Positions 24,055 to 57,050 of a DNA stretch of 64,000 bases are shown one piece after another; positions within the stretch are counted from its first letter, which is position 1, and each line of letters opens with the position of its first letter. The notes beneath the pieces were generated by a model that was not told where the DNA came from, ran no database searches, and saw nothing but the letters and a program-made list of their open reading frames with translations. The position numbers and the translations under genes are program-made. Source of the DNA: an uncultured Gemmatimonadaceae bacterium (lineage in GTDB: Bacteria; Gemmatimonadota; Gemmatimonadetes; Gemmatimonadales; Gemmatimonadaceae); the NCBI GenBank assembly GCA_963740355.1, contig CAVUDW010000002.1, forward strand, positions 1,504,001-1,568,000. The letters are read 5' to 3'.

Positions 24055-25987
24055 CGTGGTCACACACTACATCGTGCGGCTGGACCCGCTCGAGCTCGTG
24101 TTCAACACGAGGCCGATCACGGCCCTCCTCGGCTACACCGCCGACGAGTACGGCACGATGACGCTCGAGACGGTGAACCGCCTCATACATCCCGATGACG
24201 TACCCGCGCTGCAGGCGCACATCTCACGACTTCACCTGCTGGCGGATGGTGAAGTCGCGTTATTGCGGCACCGGATGCGCAATGCGGCCGGCGGCTGGGG
24301 GTGGATCGAAGTCCGCGACTCGGTCTTCACACGCACGGCCAGCGGCACGCCGGAACAGGTGATCGGGACGGCGCGTGAAGTCACCGCGCAGATGCGAACG
24401 GCGGAGGCGCTGGAGTCGAGTGAGGCCCGTCACCGCTTGTTGGTGGAAACCATGCTGCAGGGGGTGGTCCACCACGGCGCCGATGGGAGCATCATCGCGT
24501 TGAATCCCGCTGCGGAGCGCATCCTCGGCCGACCCCGCGATGACTTCATCGGCAGCGATCCATCACGCGAGGAGCAGCACACCATTCGTGAGGACGGTTC
24601 GGCGTTTCCTGGAGCGGAGCACCCATCGAGTGTGGCGCTTCGTACTGGTGCACCGATCCATGGCGTCGTCATGGGCGTCTACAACTGGGATCGGCGCGAG
24701 TATCGCTGGTTGAGCGTCGATGCGGTGCCACTGCGTCGTCCCGGAGAGTCGGTGCCGTACGAGGTCTACACCGTCTTCGAGGACATCACGGATCGCCTGC
24801 GGGCCGAAAAGGCGTTGCGCGACGCACACACGCGGAAGGATCATTTCATCGCCACGCTGGCGCATGAACTGCGGAATCCGCTGGCGCCGATTCGTCATGC
24901 CGTGGCCGTGCAGCAGCGTCGCGCAGCTGCCGCCGGTGATCCGGAACTGGCCTGGTCGCAGGCGATCATCGACCGACAGGTCGGACACATGTCGCGGTTG
25001 CTCGACGACCTGCTGGACGCGTCGCGGATCGCGAGCGGCAAGCTCGAACTGCGGCGCGAACTGGTCGGGTTGAACGCCGTCATCGCACAGTCGATCGAGA
25101 CGGCGCGACCGCAGATCGACGCGTTGCGGCATGCGCTGTCGGTGTCCTTGCCGACACCGGACGTTTACGTTGACGGCGACCCGATTCGTCTCGCACAGGT
25201 GTTCTCGAACCTGCTCACGAATGCTGCCAAGTACTCCGAGGCTGGTGGCAGCATCGCGGTGACAGCGAGTCGTGACGGGGACGGCGTGGCCGTCACCGTG
25301 CGCGATACTGGCATCGGCATCGATGCGGCGAACCTGACGCGAGTGTTCGAGATGTTCGGCCAGATCGATGCCGCGATCGATCGTTCGCAGGGCGGGCTCG
25401 GCATCGGACTCTCGCTGGCACAGGCGCTGGTGACGCTACACGGCGGCCGCATCACCGTGCAGAGCGACGGTCTGGGAAAAGGCACGTCATTCACGGTATT
25501 CCTCCCCACCTCTCCTGACGCAGCAATGCCAGACGAACAGTCGTCCACGCCGGAGCTTGCAGATCCTGTCACCCCGCGCCGGTTGCTGGTGGTGGATGAC
25601 AACCGTGACGGCTGTGATGCGCTCGCGACCCTGCTCGGCATGATGGGGTTCGAAGTGGCTACCGCCTATGACGGGCTGGAGGCCGTGGAGCGCGCCGTGG
25701 ACGGCACGCCGGACGTGGTGCTGATGGATGTTGGCCTGCCGCGCCTGAACGGCTACGAGGCCTGTACGGCGATCCGCGCCACCGTGGGTGGTGAGCGTAT
25801 CGTGATGCTGGCGGTGACCGGCTGGGGCGCGGCTGCCGACCTGCGCAACGCGACGCAAGCAGGGTTCGATGCCCACCTGGTGAAGCCGATCGACATGCAG
25901 TGGCTTGGCCAGCTGCTGCCGTTGCCGCGGTCGGAAGTGCAGCGGCTGGAGACGATCCGGCGGTTGCGGCTGGGGTACGAGGCGTGA
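24002..25987 (+). CDS. PAS-domain hybrid sensor histidine kinase/response regulator
   Basis: Two PAS domains, LAHELRNPL, NLLTNAAKY, GGLGIGL, receiver VVDDN..DVGLP..KP. Start is ATG 24002 or GTG 24056. Confidence 0.88.
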   Translation: MLPSSTLPIDIDCEPLTDVVTHYIVRLDPLELVFNTRPITALLGYTADEYGTMTLETVNRLIHPDDVPALQAHISRLHLLADGEVALLRHRMRNAAGGWGWIEVRDSVFTRTASGTPEQVIGTAREVTAQMRTAEALESSEARHRLLVETMLQGVVHHGADGSIIALNPAAERILGRPRDDFIGSDPSREEQHTIREDGSAFPGAEHPSSVALRTGAPIHGVVMGVYNWDRREYRWLSVDAVPLRRPGESVPYEVYTVFEDITDRLRAEKALRDAHTRKDHFIATLAHELRNPLAPIRHAVAVQQRRAAAAGDPELAWSQAIIDRQVGHMSRLLDDLLDASRIASGKLELRRELVGLNAVIAQSIETARPQIDALRHALSVSLPTPDVYVDGDPIRLAQVFSNLLTNAAKYSEAGGSIAVTASRDGDGVAVTVRDTGIGIDAANLTRVFEMFGQIDAAIDRSQGGLGIGLSLAQALVTLHGGRITVQSDGLGKGTSFTVFLPTSPDAAMPDEQSSTPELADPVTPRRLLVVDDNRDGCDALATLLGMMGFEVATAYDGLEAVERAVDGTPDVVLMDVGLPRLNGYEACTAIRATVGGERIVMLAVTGWGAAADLRNATQAGFDAHLVKPIDMQWLGQLLPLPRSEVQRLETIRRLRLGYEA

Positions 25988-26046
25988 TGGGTGGGCGTAC
26001 ACGGGAATACCGGCGTAAGTCGTTGCACGGCCTGCGGTTAGGCGCC

Positions 26047-26238
26047 GATCAAGGGGTCGGAGATCTTGATCGATCAAGGGGTCAGAGATCTTGATCGGGA
26101 AAGTCTGGAGCTAAACACTTGCTCCGTAATGAGTTAGGCTCAGATCAAGGGGTCAGAGATCTTGATCGGGCGATTATGAAGCTAAATCGTTGCCCCTCTT
26201 CGCTTTAGGCTCAGATCAAGGGGTCAGAGATCTTGGTC
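26047..26238 (+). repeat. Left REP-like array: 4 copies of GATCAAGGGGTC(A/G)GAGATCTTG(A/G)TC
   Basis: Copies at 26047, 26072, 26143 and 26214; the last three have a 71-bp period. Each has 7-bp inverted arms GATCAAG/CTTGATC. Confidence 0.92.
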
Positions 26239-26267
26239 GGCCGAATCGCGAGGAGTCGCGCATCGCA

Positions 26268-26978
26268 TTAGCGATGGTCGTTTTGCCAGCCCACACCCCT
26301 GCGATCGCCGCCGTGCTGCTGTGGCGTCACCCGGCGCTTCAACTGCGCCTCCAGCCGACGGAGCGCGCGGCTTTCACCCACTGCTGCACATCCGAGGCTC
26401 GCGGCGCGAATCGCCTCAATTTCTCGCCTTGGTGCATCCGCGCTGCAAAAGGCTCGATACGCAGCTTGTCGCGCGTCCGGCGTCATGCCGAGGGCATTGT
26501 ATGCACCGTGCGAGGTCAGGAGTTCGTCACAGCCCCCGTGTGCCAGGTGTCTGTGGCTCGACCACTCGTACTCCACCGCGTGGCGCACGATTCCAGCGCG
26601 AACGGGATTGAGGTCGATGTACCTACAGCACGCCAGAAAGTACCGATCGCTACCCACGATCATTGAGTGGAAGCGGCCGTCCCACAGAGTCCCGCTTCTG
26701 CGGTGCCGAGTATTCCAGTGTCGCACGAATCGACTGCCAACACGCTGCATGAGTCGCGAGGGACCGAGTGGATGCGACGCCGTAAGCAGAAGATGAATGT
26801 GGTTTGACATCAGCGCATACGCGTGCACGGCGCACGATGTGCTCCTGCTGGCGTGCATCAGGATTTCGCGGAAGTGCGCAAAATCCATTTCGTCGTGGAA
26901 CTTGAGCTCGCGATTGTGGCAGCGCTGAGTCAGGTGGATTGGAAAGCCTGGTGCAATGAGTCTTGGCATGCGCGCCAT
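26268..26978 (-). mobile_element. REP-associated tyrosine transposase (RAYT; HUH/Y1 superfamily)
   Basis: HLTQRCHNR, HUH motif MSNHIHLL, GTLWDGRF, catalytic RYIDLNPVRAG, YEWSS; flanked by REP-like arrays. Confidence 0.9.
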
Positions 26979-27204
26979 TTGCGCCTCGGTGCGTGAGCCG
27001 ACAGCTCGGTGGGAAACGCGTAAGGATGCCGCAGCCTCAAGCGCCGCAGACGGCGTGTGAACGACGCGATTCTATCGCTTGGCGCTTCTCAACACCGCAC
27101 CTGATTCGCGCATCGATCATCGCGTGCACGCCGGCGTATCATTCCTTCAGCCGTTTCGCGGTGGCGCAGCAGCAAAGGAGCACTGATCTGAGCGAGACTG
27201 AGCC

Positions 27205-27371
27205 GATCAAGATCTCTGACCCCTTGATCGAGACGTAAGGCTCGTACTACGAAGGCTTTAGCCCGCGAACTCGCCGATCAAGATCTCTGACCCCTTGATC
27301 GAGACGTAAGGCTCGTACTACTAAGGCTTTAGCCCGCGAACTCGCCGATCAAGATCTCTGACCCCTTGATC
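27205..27371 (-). repeat. Right REP-like array: 3 inverted copies GATCAAGATCTCTGACCCCTTGATC
   Basis: Copies at 27205, 27276 and 27347 (71-bp period); exact reverse complement of the left-array consensus. The two 46-bp linkers differ by 1 nt. Confidence 0.92.
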
Positions 27372-27491
27372 GGCTTTCACCTTGATCGGATGCAGCCGCC
27401 TGCGCCAAAAACAACGCGCCCCGACCAGTCTCCTGATCGGGGCGCGTCGTCATCCGCGCATCGCAGCGCGTCACATCAAACGTTCATCGCA

Positions 27492-27908
27492 CTATCGACA
27501 GATCCACGGCGTCGCGTTTTCGCGCGCGGTGCTCCGGCGCGCACTCGTCTCGTCGATGGCAGTGAACGTCACCTCGAGAAACCCGTCGTCCTGACTCTGC
27601 GATGTGCACTGCATTTCCTTGCGGACACTGAAGGCGCCGTTCGCATCGGCCTTGATCGGGCCGAACGCAATCGCCTGGCTGGTGTTCGGCGGCGGCGACC
27701 CGGTGAGCTTCACCGGTCCGTTCGGCGTGAAGTTCGAACCCGTGATGGTGATCACGGGACCCGTCGCCTGACGCTGGATGCTCACGCTCAGCTTCAGCGG
27801 CGGTGTGGCCTGCGCATGGACCGCCATCGGCAGCGCAGCAAGGGCCAGCCCGAACAGGACAGTTGCCCCGATCGAGGACCAAGTGCGACGAGCCTGGTGG
27901 ACACGCAT
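27492..27908 (-). CDS. Hypothetical secreted protein (small, beta-rich, two Cys)
   Basis: AGGAG plus ATG 27908; signal peptide ending AVHA-Q; ITITGSNFTPNG...ADANGAF resembles Ig-like folds. Confidence 0.7.
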   Translation of the reverse strand: MRVHQARRTWSSIGATVLFGLALAALPMAVHAQATPPLKLSVSIQRQATGPVITITGSNFTPNGPVKLTGSPPPNTSQAIAFGPIKADANGAFSVRKEMQCTSQSQDDGFLEVTFTAIDETSARRSTARENATPWICR

Positions 27909-28113
27909 GAACGACTCCTGAAAAAGGGGTACCTGCAATCGAGGACGATTGCCGGCTGTCGAACGACACACCCACGACGACACACGTACATCGTATCGCG
28001 TGTAGGTGCAATTCGACACTGTAATATACACCGGTTCCGCGCTTGAGTTCACTGCGCCAAGTGGTTTGTTTCCTTGCACTTATGCCACTGCTCCGACCGC
28101 TGGTCAGGCTCCG

Positions 28114-29178
28114 ATGAGCCTGCGAGATCGCCTCGACGACGCCGTAGCCCGCGCTGCCGTGGTGGAGCAGGAGCTGCTGGACCCCCGGACGGTCAAAGAT
28201 CCACGGCTTCTCGCCACCCTCGGCAAGGAGCACCAGCGCCTCCAGGACGTCGTGCGCCTGGCCGCCGAAGTGCGCCAGATCGAGCGCGAACTGGTAGAAT
28301 CGCGCGAAATGGCGAACGGCGACGACCCCGATTTCGCCACCGAGGCGCAGGCGGAGGTCGTACGGCTGGAAGAGCGCCTGGAACAACTCGACCGCGATCT
28401 CTATCCGCTGCTGGTGCCGCGCGATCCGCTCGACGATCGGCCCGCAATCATCGAAATCCGCGCCGGTACCGGCGGCGATGAAGCGGCGCTCTTCGCGGCC
28501 GATCTCTGGCGCATGTACGAACGCTTCTTCGCCCGTCAGGGATGGCGCATCGAAGTGATGTCGATGTCCGACGGCACCCTCGGTGGCATCAAGGAAGTCA
28601 TCGCACGTGTCGACGGCAGTGGCGCCTTCGGCACGATGCGCTGGGAGTCCGGCGTGCACCGCGTGCAGCGCGTACCGGCCACCGAAACCCAGGGGCGCAT
28701 CCATACCTCCGCCGCCACGGTGGCCGTGCTGCCGGAAGCGGAAGAAGTCGACGTCACGATCGAGGACAAGGATCTCCGCATCGATGTCTTCCGCTCGTCA
28801 GGGCCTGGTGGACAGAGCGTCAACACCACCGACTCGGCCGTGCGGATCACGCATATCCCCAGCGGGATCGTCGTCAGCCAGCAAGACCAGAAGTCGCAGC
28901 TGCAGAACAAGATCAAGGGGATGACGGTGCTCCGCTCCCGGTTGCTCGACCAGCGTCTCGCGAAGCTCGAGGCGGAACGCTCGCAGATGCGCAGCGCGCA
29001 GGTCGGCACCGGCGATCGCTCGGCCAAGATCCGCACCTACAACTATCCGCAGGATCGCATCACCGATCATCGGATCGGATTGTCTTTGCATGGCATGCAG
29101 TCGGTGATGGATGGCAACATCGGGCCGTTCATCGACGCACTGCAGGAGGCGGAAGTGAAGGAGCGGCTGGGTGGCTGA
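28114..29178 (+). CDS. prfA: Peptide chain release factor 1
   Basis: EIRAGTGGDEAALF, ESGVHRVQRVPATE (PxT), GPGGQSVN; followed by prmC. Confidence 0.96.
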   Translation: MSLRDRLDDAVARAAVVEQELLDPRTVKDPRLLATLGKEHQRLQDVVRLAAEVRQIERELVESREMANGDDPDFATEAQAEVVRLEERLEQLDRDLYPLLVPRDPLDDRPAIIEIRAGTGGDEAALFAADLWRMYERFFARQGWRIEVMSMSDGTLGGIKEVIARVDGSGAFGTMRWESGVHRVQRVPATETQGRIHTSAATVAVLPEAEEVDVTIEDKDLRIDVFRSSGPGGQSVNTTDSAVRITHIPSGIVVSQQDQKSQLQNKIKGMTVLRSRLLDQRLAKLEAERSQMRSAQVGTGDRSAKIRTYNYPQDRITDHRIGLSLHGMQSVMDGNIGPFIDALQEAEVKERLGG

Positions 29179-55145: not shown

Positions 55146-57050
55146 ATGATTGAACCCGCTGCACCCTCGCGTTATCGCTTGTCGATGGCCATCGCGCAGC
55201 AGGATGGCGTTCGAACCTATATCGCGGTGGATACCGTTGCGGGTGATTCGGTCCTCGCGCATGTGCTGACCGATACGTCGCCGGCGGCTCGCACGCTGAT
55301 GACGGCGCGTCTGGCGCAACTCACGGGAACCGATGCCGCGCAGGTGCTGGCGACGGTGGTCACTGACCGCGGCTGGGCCGTGATCACGCGTGCCGAGGAC
55401 GGGCTGAACAACTTTGGTGCGTGGTTGCATGCGCGCACGGTTGAGCCCCCCGCGCCATCGGGGACGATGGAGTTCAGCGCGTTTTCGTTCGCACCGCCGG
55501 CGGCACCATCGGCAGCCGCAGCCCCGGTTGCCGCTCCACCGACGGCGCCGCCGCTTGCGATGCCGAGTGTCGCCGCGCCTGTCGACAAGACGGTCGTCAT
55601 TCCACGGCCGCCGAGCACGCCGCCGGTCACGCCGCCGCCGATGGCCGTGCAGCCGGTCGCTCCGCCGCCGATGGCCATGCCGCCAGTTGCCATGCCGCCG
55701 GTTTCGCTGCCATCAGTGCCTCCAACACCGGCCGCGGTGCCAGCGCCTGCACCGGTGATGCCGATGCCGATGCCCGGTGGCGAGGCGATGGTGCTGCCGG
55801 TGGTGCTGTCATCGTCCCCGCCGCCCCCACCACCGAAGGCGCCTGCACCAGGGGAATTCACGCAGATGTTCGCGCCACTCGGCGCGCCGCCATCGAGTGG
55901 CGCGTCGACGCCGTCGCCGGTAGTTCCGATGCCGGTAGCGCCGATGCCGGTTGTCGCGCCGCCAGCACCGGTTGTTTCGCCGGTCGTGTCGACGCCGATT
56001 GCCCCACCAGTGGCGCCGTCGCCGATTGCCGCGGCGCCAGTTGCACCACAGCCAACATTCGACGGGCCGACACAGGCGCCAGCGCAGCAGTCGGTCACTC
56101 GACCCGATCTCGTGTTGCCGCTGCCACCGGCCGACGATGTGCGACCGGCAGCGCCACCACCCACGCCACCACCCGCGCCACCTGCGGCCATTCCGTCGCC
56201 GTCGGTCGTCACACCGGCGCCGCCTGTGACGCCTGCCGCGCCGGCACCCGGTGAATTCACCGCGATGTTCTCGCCGGGCGCCCACTTGAGCGGTCCACCG
56301 CGACCGCACATGTCACCGCCTGCTGCGGCGCCGCCACCAAGCGCGTACACGCCACCGCTCGCGCCACCTGCGTACACGCCACCGCAGGCGCCGCCACCGT
56401 ACACTCCACCGGTCGCGGCACCACCCGCGTACGTGCCACCGGCACCGCCGCCGGATCGTTTCCCGAGTCCGCCGCCTGACACCCGTCCGCCGGCCTTTGG
56501 TGCGGGTGCGGGCGTGAGCGCGTTGCCGCCGCTGCCGCCCCCTGCGACACCGCGTCCGGTGACGGCGCCGCCGATGTCGCCGCCTCCCCTGTCGCCGCCA
56601 TCACTGGCGATGCCGCCAGCCGGTGCCGCAGCGCCTGCACCGGCGCCTGGTGCGAGTGTACCGCCGGTATTGCCGCCGCCGCTGTTCGGTTTGCCTGCGG
56701 CGGGTGGGCCACCTCCGGCGAAGGCGGGGCGCGCTGCCGCCAGTGAGTACACGATGGTGATGCAGGCGAGCGTGAAGCCGATCGATGCGCCGGCACCTGC
56801 GAAGGAGCCAGCCGCCGATGCCACTGCGTCGACTGGTACGCGTCGACTCACGTTACCGGTGATCCTGATGATCAACGCCGTGGTGTTGCTGACGCTCGGA
56901 TTGATTCTCTACTTCGTGTTGCGAAATCCGCCTGCGGCCGTGCCGACGGTGAAAGGCGCACGAGCTTCGGCGGACAGTGCCGCGAAGGGTGCGGTCGACT
57001 CAGCCAAGGTGCAGGGTGATTCTGCCGGAGCGACCGCGCCAAAACCGTAA
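55146..57050 (+). CDS. Proline-rich single-pass membrane protein with degenerate kinase-N-lobe-like N-terminus (T6SS-associated)
   Basis: About 95-aa globular N-terminus, about 470-aa Pro/Ala tract with repeated motifs, TM VILMINAVVLLTLGLILYFVL. Confidence 0.7.
   Translation: MIEPAAPSRYRLSMAIAQQDGVRTYIAVDTVAGDSVLAHVLTDTSPAARTLMTARLAQLTGTDAAQVLATVVTDRGWAVITRAEDGLNNFGAWLHARTVEPPAPSGTMEFSAFSFAPPAAPSAAAAPVAAPPTAPPLAMPSVAAPVDKTVVIPRPPSTPPVTPPPMAVQPVAPPPMAMPPVAMPPVSLPSVPPTPAAVPAPAPVMPMPMPGGEAMVLPVVLSSSPPPPPPKAPAPGEFTQMFAPLGAPPSSGASTPSPVVPMPVAPMPVVAPPAPVVSPVVSTPIAPPVAPSPIAAAPVAPQPTFDGPTQAPAQQSVTRPDLVLPLPPADDVRPAAPPPTPPPAPPAAIPSPSVVTPAPPVTPAAPAPGEFTAMFSPGAHLSGPPRPHMSPPAAAPPPSAYTPPLAPPAYTPPQAPPPYTPPVAAPPAYVPPAPPPDRFPSPPPDTRPPAFGAGAGVSALPPLPPPATPRPVTAPPMSPPPLSPPSLAMPPAGAAAPAPAPGASVPPVLPPPLFGLPAAGGPPPAKAGRAAASEYTMVMQASVKPIDAPAPAKEPAADATASTGTRRLTLPVILMINAVVLLTLGLILYFVLRNPPAAVPTVKGARASADSAAKGAVDSAKVQGDSAGATAPKP

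Follow-up and report, generated by a model that had tools for sequence, protein, structure and literature searches.

How does a short hairpin repeat come to stand in regular arrays on both sides of a single nuclease gene, and does such a bracket form a system of its own? The question is raised by a locus in a 64,000-nucleotide stretch from an uncultured Gemmatimonadaceae bacterium (hereafter the window; G000:C2:1504001-1568000, where G000 labels the source genome of 5.45 Mb, 65% G+C and five contigs). Positions 26016 to 27371 of the window hold a gene for a REP-associated tyrosine transposase (RAYT; REP, repetitive extragenic palindrome) and seven copies of a 25-nucleotide repeat. The initial annotation, made from the letters alone, saw here a non-canonical RAYT-array system, in which the nuclease would build the arrays or be directed by them.

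RAYT/REP systems are among the commonest repeats of bacterial genomes, and the way in which their hairpins multiply is unsettled. To our knowledge, nearly all work on them concerns proteobacterial REPs that carry a GTAG tag and stand in inverted doublets. For the present locus we favor, at a probability of about 0.8 that includes the mechanism set out below, a REPtron of the TIRYT or TIRtron type: a single-copy RAYT-class gene between inverted members of its own genome-wide hairpin family. This would be a system of known kind whose repeats are laid out in a non-canonical way; the layout is preserved within the genus and reaches its greatest regularity in the present genome.

A RAYT gene between inward-facing hairpins

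The 236-amino-acid protein is an intact RAYT-type Y1/HUH enzyme, as the Pfam match, invariant residues, and profile and fold matches to Escherichia coli TnpA-REP (structure 4ER8) all indicate; the HUH nuclease of the initial annotation is thereby borne out. Pfam Y1_Tnp matches it at 2.9e-12 and 47.2 bits (cut-off 23), and the IS200 equivalog model reaches only 23.7 bits (cut-off 55). There are 1119 homologues at E<=1e-10, including Gemmatimonadaceae "transposases"; the betaproteobacterial ones, about 44% identical, are annotated at source as REP-associated tyrosine transposases, and the closest RAYT among named genomes (46% identity) comes from a Gemmatimonadales metagenome-assembled genome (MAG). 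Invariant in an alignment of 24 homologues are H60 and H62 (the HUH motif); Y120, within RYIDLNP; and W139-S140-S141.

Searched singly with phmmer against Protein Data Bank sequences, the protein found nothing at E<=0.01. A profile of the 24 homologues ranked E. coli TnpA-REP (4er8) first among solved structures, at 1.1e-5, with the HUH and Y..NP motifs aligned. An AlphaFold2 model (mean predicted local distance difference test score, pLDDT, 89.3) gave the same answer in Foldseek: 4er8_A came out on top (E 1.4e-8; TM-score 0.77 on the target), before the IS608 and ISDra2 TnpA structures. The model predicts a helical carboxyl-terminal extension; Pfam returned nothing for the last 97 residues (140-236), even at E<=10. 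The genome carries one copy of the gene together with a 34%-identical paralogue on the minus strand of contig C3 (374499-375140), and no near-identical copies.

The repeat, GATCAAGGGGTCAGAGATCTTGATC, occurs exactly seven times in the window at <=2 mismatches, and none of 100 dinucleotide-preserving shuffles of the window contained any match. Its copies and their surroundings are as follows (window positions).

26016..26046, +: linker-like leader before the first left repeat, resembling the 3' part of the 46-nt linker
26047..26071, +: REP copy 1 (A13G), abutting copy 2 without a linker
26072..26096, +: REP copy 2, exact
26097..26142, +: 46-nt linker
26143..26167, +: REP copy 3, exact
26168..26213, +: 46-nt linker; 77% identity between the two left 71-nt units
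26214..26238, +: REP copy 4 (A23G), the last before the RAYT stop
26268..26978, -: RAYT gene, 236-aa Y1/HUH enzyme with H60-I-H62 and the catalytic Tyr120 in RYIDLNP
27205..27229, -: REP copy 5, exact
27230..27275, -: 46-nt linker
27276..27300, -: REP copy 6, exact
27301..27346, -: 46-nt linker; 99% identity between the two right 71-nt units
27347..27371, -: REP copy 7, exact

Start-to-start spacing is thus 25, 71, and 71 in the left array and 71 and 71 in the right one. All four linkers are exactly 46 bp, as first noted, and the fifth junction, between copies 1 and 2, has no linker at all. Copies 1 and 4 each carry a single substitution. The leader is part of the same pattern: positions 26016-26072 align at 74-77% identity with the linker-plus-repeat units at 26112-26168 and 26183-26239. 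The RAYT stop codon lies 29 nt past the end of the last left copy, and the ATG lies 226 nt downstream of the start of the nearest right copy. With the gene set on the plus strand, upstream copies are plus and downstream copies minus, so that the asymmetric repeat core is aimed at the gene from either side. The single-stranded 25-mer is predicted to fold into a 7-bp stem with an 11-nt loop (-3.6 kcal/mol as DNA); as RNA it would form eight pairs (-7.1 kcal/mol). On all these points (seven copies, four past the stop and three inverted upstream; arm and loop lengths; inward orientation) the initial description holds.

The neighbors of the locus are a PAS histidine kinase/response regulator, a 195-amino-acid protein without a Pfam match, and a release-factor-like open reading frame. 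Just beyond the left array, a terminator-like hairpin with a T-rich tail (26261-26276, +) lies across the RAYT stop codon, on the strand opposite to the gene, and could mark the end of the convergent histidine-kinase transcript. A search of positions 25500-28000 against Rfam found nothing at E<=1.

A dispersed family and the growth of its arrays

The 25-mer is not confined to the window. Genome-wide there are 62 exact copies, 198 at <=3 mismatches, and 214 at <=5 mismatches, in 48 clusters of one to nine copies. The 25-mer is therefore a dispersed extragenic family and not a two-array system specific to the RAYT locus. All 48 clusters are extragenic, overlapping genes by at most 53 bp; this result, like the neighbor-strand results below, rests on crude gene calls from G+C content at third codon positions (GC3).

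The family is not one of ordinary doublets either. Among 166 pairs of neighboring repeats, 144 (87%) are head-to-tail, 20 are +/-, and two are -/+, which makes 22 inverted altogether. Same-orientation spacings are 71 bp in 72 cases, 25 bp in 27, and 72 bp in eight, the others being scattered.

Within the 25-mer, constraint on the loop and inner stem far exceeds that on their surroundings. Positions 4-22, loop included, are at least 96% invariant, the exception being position 13, which is either A or G (171/42). Variation is found in the three outermost stem pairs, often as T.G (pair 3-23 in 51 copies). The motif GGGGTCAG occupies positions 7-14 in every copy at the locus. A GT[AG]G sequence at the hairpin foot is absent from the consensus of 214 oriented copies, which reads ..gtTag.c.cC before the stem and Gg after it.

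Strand counts of the repeat are 66+/43- on C2 and 46+/59- on C3; GC skew is positive throughout C2 and negative throughout C3. This weak strand bias parallels the gene-strand bias and does not decide whether the repeats are oriented with replication.

Three further pairs of arrays of the same 25-mer enclose segments of 0.65-1.34 kb with ordinary genes.

C2:1758332-1760062 (L044), inward (+ left, - right): array pair around a Vgb_lyase-like gene (355 aa)
C3:2457273-2458356 (L045), inward (+ left, - right): array pair around a Rieske-like gene (163 aa)
C2:127674-129419 (L046), ++++ left and ++-- right: array pair around a Cupin_2 gene (167 aa)

Five cluster pairs lie less than 1.5 kb apart, against about 0.6 expected for 48 randomly placed clusters (a rough estimate). 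The enclosed genes are possibly passengers between RAYT-type ends; possibly the repeats favor both flanks of short genes.

The 46-nt linkers tell how the arrays have grown. For 72 of them, from 30 arrays, identity is 0.884 inside an array and 0.505 from one array to another, compared with 0.264 for shuffles. From these sequences the linkers are diverged copies of one 46-nt template, not unique spacers; the consensus is GGggaaTTc.gGgc.TAAg.c.tTg....gcat.G.gTTAggc.Cc, with a few conserved positions. Only one pair of arrays, 1.3 kb apart, has a linker type in common. That linkers otherwise differ from array to array speaks against units passing from one locus to another. Spacing patterns recur in blocks of several units: 71,25,71,25,71,25,71; 57,71,71,57,71,71; and 71,71,71,22,35,71,71,22. 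Such blocks, together with the near-identity of neighboring linkers, point to growth mainly by local duplication, in place, of one or several units.

These data dispose of the suggestion that the locus is a repeat-spacer array, akin to CRISPR, whose transcripts or single strands guide the nuclease. The likeness is outward: short palindromic repeats, regularly spaced at intervals of constant length. The would-be spacers are homologous throughout the genome and near-identical within an array; arrays number 48, where CRISPR would have one or a few; 27 junctions of period 25 have no spacer at all; and at orthologous loci in the genus (below) periods of 23 nt leave no room for one. The neighbors of the locus are not cas-like, though no genome-wide cas search was made. 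We reject this explanation as highly improbable. The regularity that prompted the term repeat-spacer-like is real; the spacers are not, and nothing supports the idea that arrays direct the nuclease.

A by-eye candidate for a second conserved hairpin, in the linker, was also rejected. Mutual information between columns of 35 linker representatives (<80% identical) singled out no pair convincingly, as the highest value, 0.47, belonged to columns that are not base-paired, and RNAalifold predicted no linker helix in repeat-linker-repeat units on either strand with RNA or DNA parameters.

Who duplicates the units? The enzyme itself might build the arrays unit by unit, cutting at the hairpin foot and inserting or re-copying a 25- or 71-nt unit beside an existing hairpin. 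Its target site would then be the repeat's own end, and head-to-tail concatemers of exact period would be its direct product. Precise junctions at repeat borders would account for the 27 exact abutments and the 72 pairs spaced by exactly 71 bp; head-to-tail order accompanies this RAYT lineage throughout the genus, at periods of 23, 25, 27, 42, and 56; and the second paralogue provides a contrast within one genome. That gene (C3:374499-375140, equal to L047:800-1441; Pfam Y1_Tnp 8.6e-8) is flanked by inverted copies of a different repeat, CCGGTGACAGTGCACTCATT, two on each side. The second repeat has 34 exact copies genome-wide and 124 at <=3 mismatches, concentrated near C2:1.63-1.69 Mb and C2:1.97 Mb. 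Most of these copies form +/- doublets with a spacing of about 26-27 bp, and some stand head-to-tail at intervals of about 28 bp. A single genome thus carries two RAYT/repeat systems of contrasting layout, and layout therefore goes with the enzyme/repeat pair and not with the host. Nevertheless, array-specific linkers, shared by only that one pair of arrays, and multi-unit blocks, which unequal recombination or slippage would yield without any enzyme, speak against the enzyme as builder. We consider unit-by-unit construction possible though doubtful.

A somewhat less likely proposal, compatible with the TIRYT-type reading, is that host use keeps the arrays, as stem-loops in the 3' ends of RNAs or as phased sites for a nucleoid protein on the linker, with the RAYT as maintenance enzyme. 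The linker holds TAA-N4-TTG, which resembles the core of the E. coli IHF consensus. Consistent with host use, every cluster is extragenic, and the linker stays at 46 nt with a few conserved positions. Moreover, the 5'-side gene shares the repeat's strand in 150 of 214 cases (by cluster, in 19 of the 29 that have a single orientation), compared with 108 of 214 for the 3'-side gene; the repeat would therefore be read in sense in the 3' region of that 5'-side gene. Non-Watson-Crick stem cells are more often G.T than C.A on the sense strand (63 vs 31). A precedent is the binding of IHF to the inter-REP segment of BIME-1 in E. coli (BIME, bacterial interspersed mosaic element; Nunvar 2010). The orientation bias is weak at the level of clusters, however, and depends on the crude gene calls. 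The hairpin is weak both as DNA and as RNA and has no T-run, and the terminator scan flagged no repeat copy; the linker shows neither consensus structure nor covariation, and there is no Rfam match.

Arrays and enzyme across the genus

Twenty genomes of the genus were compared, G000 included; the kin genomes comprise many incomplete MAGs. Orthologue-level RAYTs were defined by E<=1e-60, a threshold chosen after the table had been viewed. A 19-mer core of the repeat is present in eight of the 19 other genomes (75 copies in G007, 58 in G018, 22 in G010) and in none of 21 genomes outside the genus. RAYT orthologues, 50-59% identical, occur in 11 other genomes of the genus.

In nine of the 11 orthologous loci, GGGGWCRGAG repeats lie on both sides of the gene, plus upstream and minus downstream when the gene is oriented; the only departure is one stray plus copy downstream of the gene in L036. 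Of the other loci, L037 starts at the gene and has downstream repeats only, L043 has upstream copies only, and L041 has no GGGGWCRGAG repeats. Periods are 23 (four loci), 27, 33/23 (with 34/57 downstream, at the same locus, L034), 23/59, and 25/29, and never 71. The genus has therefore kept the inverted bracket of head-to-tail copies, and only this genome has the 71-bp period: of the two features of the flanks that the initial annotation singled out for comparison, orientation is kept and period (23-59 bp elsewhere) is not.

Each species has its own variant of the repeat. The variants GGGGACGG and GGGGACAG fit the published motif GGGGWSAS (below) partly or fully, GGGGACGG departing from it at position 7. 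In G009 the variant has 112 copies genome-wide, in head-to-tail runs of period 23, 25, 42, and 56. Some genomes, among them G007, G009, and G018, contain two or three RAYT paralogues of this lineage, each adjoining its own repeat variant. For example, the RAYT at G009:C21:174797-175453 adjoins arrays of GGGGACAGAG with a 24-nt period at C21:175621-175702, and a partial copy at a contig end in G018 (C45) adjoins repeats of the G000 type.

Arrays track the presence of the RAYT. Head-to-tail motif pairs 20-50 bp apart number at least 12 in all 12 genomes with an orthologue-level RAYT (G000 included) and at most three in seven of the eight genomes without one. A reversed-pattern control gave 0 pairs in all 20 genomes.

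This co-occurrence bears on the simplest alternative: that the arrays are ordinary minisatellites, unrelated to the enzyme and next to its gene by chance. Growth by local duplication and the bracketing of other genes would suit it. It must contend with an inward bracket at nine of 11 orthologous loci, each species with its own variant; with the abundance of arrays in 12 of 12 orthologue-bearing genomes and their near-absence from seven of the eight others; and with a loop motif that matches the published TIRYT flank consensus. We judge chance proximity very improbable.

The RAYT locus is syntenic in two of the 11 related loci; two of its neighbors lie at window positions 27492-28079 (195-aa protein) and 28006-29178 (release factor). 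At L033 (G017) the common neighbors are the histidine kinase, at 61% identity, the 195-aa protein, at 92%, and the release factor, at 83%; the RAYT itself is 59% identical. At L034 (G009) the figures are 74% for the 195-aa protein, 78% for the release factor, and 55% for the RAYT. This fits vertical descent with fast evolution; either the RAYT evolves much faster than its neighbors or it has been replaced in place. A RAYT tree has 13 rows, comprising the 12 genus loci and L001 (a translation on a very long branch). It contains one starred clade of four, whose members have the 23-nt repeat GGGGACGGAG and its period in common.

Relation to known systems and a proposed mechanism

Several known systems come close. 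Di Nocera et al. 2013 (PMC3733652) described RAYT-like genes, in species without GTAG REPs, flanked by inverted repeats that share GGGGWSAS; the elements were named TIRtrons and the enzymes TIRYTs, and some families of these terminal inverted repeats (TIRs) were moderately abundant, clustered, and self-complementary. Quentin et al. 2018 (PMC6006769) described TnpA-Y1 subclass 2.1, with a median length of 238 aa; the motifs NHVH/NH[YF]H, W[EQ], YIELNP/Y[IV]HLNP, and SS; and a carboxyl-terminal extension with helix-turn-helix-like similarity (Bac_DnaA_C, HTH_23, HTH_28). These authors report no REP-like sequence near subclass 2.1 genes. The subclass is probably the same as the TIRYTs (flank consensus GGGG[AT][CG]A[CG]) and corresponds to Group 1 of Bertels et al. 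2017 (PMC5581495). The latter authors found highly abundant flanking 16-mers only with Groups 2 and 3; the commonest Group 1 flanking 16-mer occurs about 12 times genome-wide.

The present enzyme resembles this group in its length (236 aa), NHIH, WD (the family consensus being WE), YIDLNP, and W-S-S, a likeness at the level of motifs set beside the published ones rather than of a joint tree. The locus also has inverted flanks, low gene copy number, and a hairpin loop, GGGGTCAG, that matches GGGGWSAS. It differs from the accounts just cited in having a clear hairpin; about 200 copies; neighbor pairs that are 87% head-to-tail; and a linker fixed at 46 nt. Moreover, Pfam detects no helix-turn-helix-like similarity in residues 140-236, and some members of the genus carry GGGGACGG, which is off the published motif. 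Gemmatimonadetes go unmentioned in the main texts on TIRYTs, subclass 2.1, and Group 1, although their supplements may list such genomes, and our search found no literature joining Gemmatimonadetes with a REP-associated tyrosine transposase.

The E. coli REPtron (TnpA-REP, or YafM; 4ER8) provides the best profile and structural match, and there too an extragenic palindrome, dispersed genome-wide in regular clusters, flanks the gene with inverted copies (Nunvar 2010). Its enzyme is 165 aa long, compared with 236 aa here. E. coli REPs are marked by a 5' GTAG guide, and their orientation alternates within BIMEs, which contain one third of REPs (Nunvar 2010); the present repeats lack GTAG, run head-to-tail, and have a conserved loop motif. 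In Pseudomonas, a single-copy RAYT likewise accompanies a vertically inherited population of cognate repeats (Bertels and Rainey 2011, PMC3116915), and the population here is nearly absent where the RAYT is absent. The mobile unit there, the REPIN, is an inverted doublet; only 22 of 166 neighbor pairs are inverted here, and it is the second paralogue of G000 whose family is mostly of the doublet type, as in REPIN systems. Head-to-tail dimers and tandemly reiterated singletons of REPs are on record (Di Nocera et al. 2013, PMC3733652); here head-to-tail is the dominant form. In sum, the gene stands, as a RAYT gene should, between inverted repeats of a family with abundant extragenic copies across the genome, and the repeat departs from canonical REPs, REPINs, and BIMEs in having no 5' GT[AG]G within 0-2 nt of the foot and no predominance of inverted or alternating arrangement.

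This suggests a mechanism for the TIRYT-type REPtron. By homology, the enzyme would recognize the 25-nt hairpin on single-stranded DNA, chiefly through the near-invariant loop and inner stem with GGGGTCAG and not through a GTAG foot, and would cut and rejoin at the hairpin borders. Cutting and rejoining would seed, disperse, and maintain the repeat family; the inverted flanking copies would be the ends of an ancestral element. Arrays would lengthen mostly through local tandem duplication of 25-nt, 71-nt, or multi-unit blocks, by unequal recombination, slippage, or enzyme-catalyzed joining of neighboring hairpins. The 46-nt linker would presumably be carried along passively, diverging in sequence at a fixed length, and would not have been acquired as a spacer. 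That local block duplication occurred is read from the arrays themselves; its author, like the binding and cleavage sites, we infer.

Several observations weigh against this reading. The enzyme scores 79.7 bits with the NCBIfam model REP_Tyr_transpos, 0.3 below the cut-off of 80. Its model is only 19% identical to 4ER8 in the structural alignment, and it is from such homology that binding and cleavage are predicted. Because the repeat has no 5' GT[AG]G guide, the E. coli mode of recognition is not simply transferable. Arrays also bracket ordinary genes elsewhere, and a bracket is therefore no exclusive mark of the RAYT. Some 35 linkers that have diverged independently (<80% mutual identity) are all exactly 46 nt long, which pure neutral drift explains poorly. 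One genome, G014, has 49 head-to-tail GGGGWCRGAG pairs and a RAYT hit at paralogue level only (36% identity, 1.3e-27): its orthologue may be missing from the assembly, its arrays may last without one, or the paralogue may serve them. Finally, eight of 10 inner branches of the RAYT tree lack resolution and the clustering of repeat-type labels is not significant, so that co-evolution of RAYT and repeat is weakly shown.

A bolder version can be framed, which we think unlikely. RAYTs of the TIRYT/subclass 2.1 group, described as being without REPs, would make precise head-to-tail concatemers at the hairpin foot, by rolling-circle-like re-initiation or self-targeted insertion, unlike REPIN-type enzymes. 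The copied unit would include the 46-nt linker, its length selected as a phased protein-binding module, and the arrays would be enzyme-built elements that structure the chromosome or act at 3' ends, rather than junk in decay.

If the TIRYT-type reading is right, the locus is not a new class of system. The genus, from a phylum that has received little study, would then be well suited to show how subclass 2.1 RAYTs and their repeats work: it sets an enzyme from a group reported without REPs next to an abundant, unmistakable hairpin family, a clean comparison provided by nature. A conserved loop motif, species-specific head-to-tail periods, arrays that follow the enzyme, and a second, doublet-type RAYT in the same genome make three questions testable: what the enzyme reads, at which site it cuts, and whether the arrays are its work or that of recombination.

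Elsewhere in the window, Tandem Repeats Finder reports arrays at 55607-55700 and 56332-56441 (periods of 15/30 nt and 27 nt; scores 64-108). They are unrelated to the RAYT repeats and may be repeats within a coding region.

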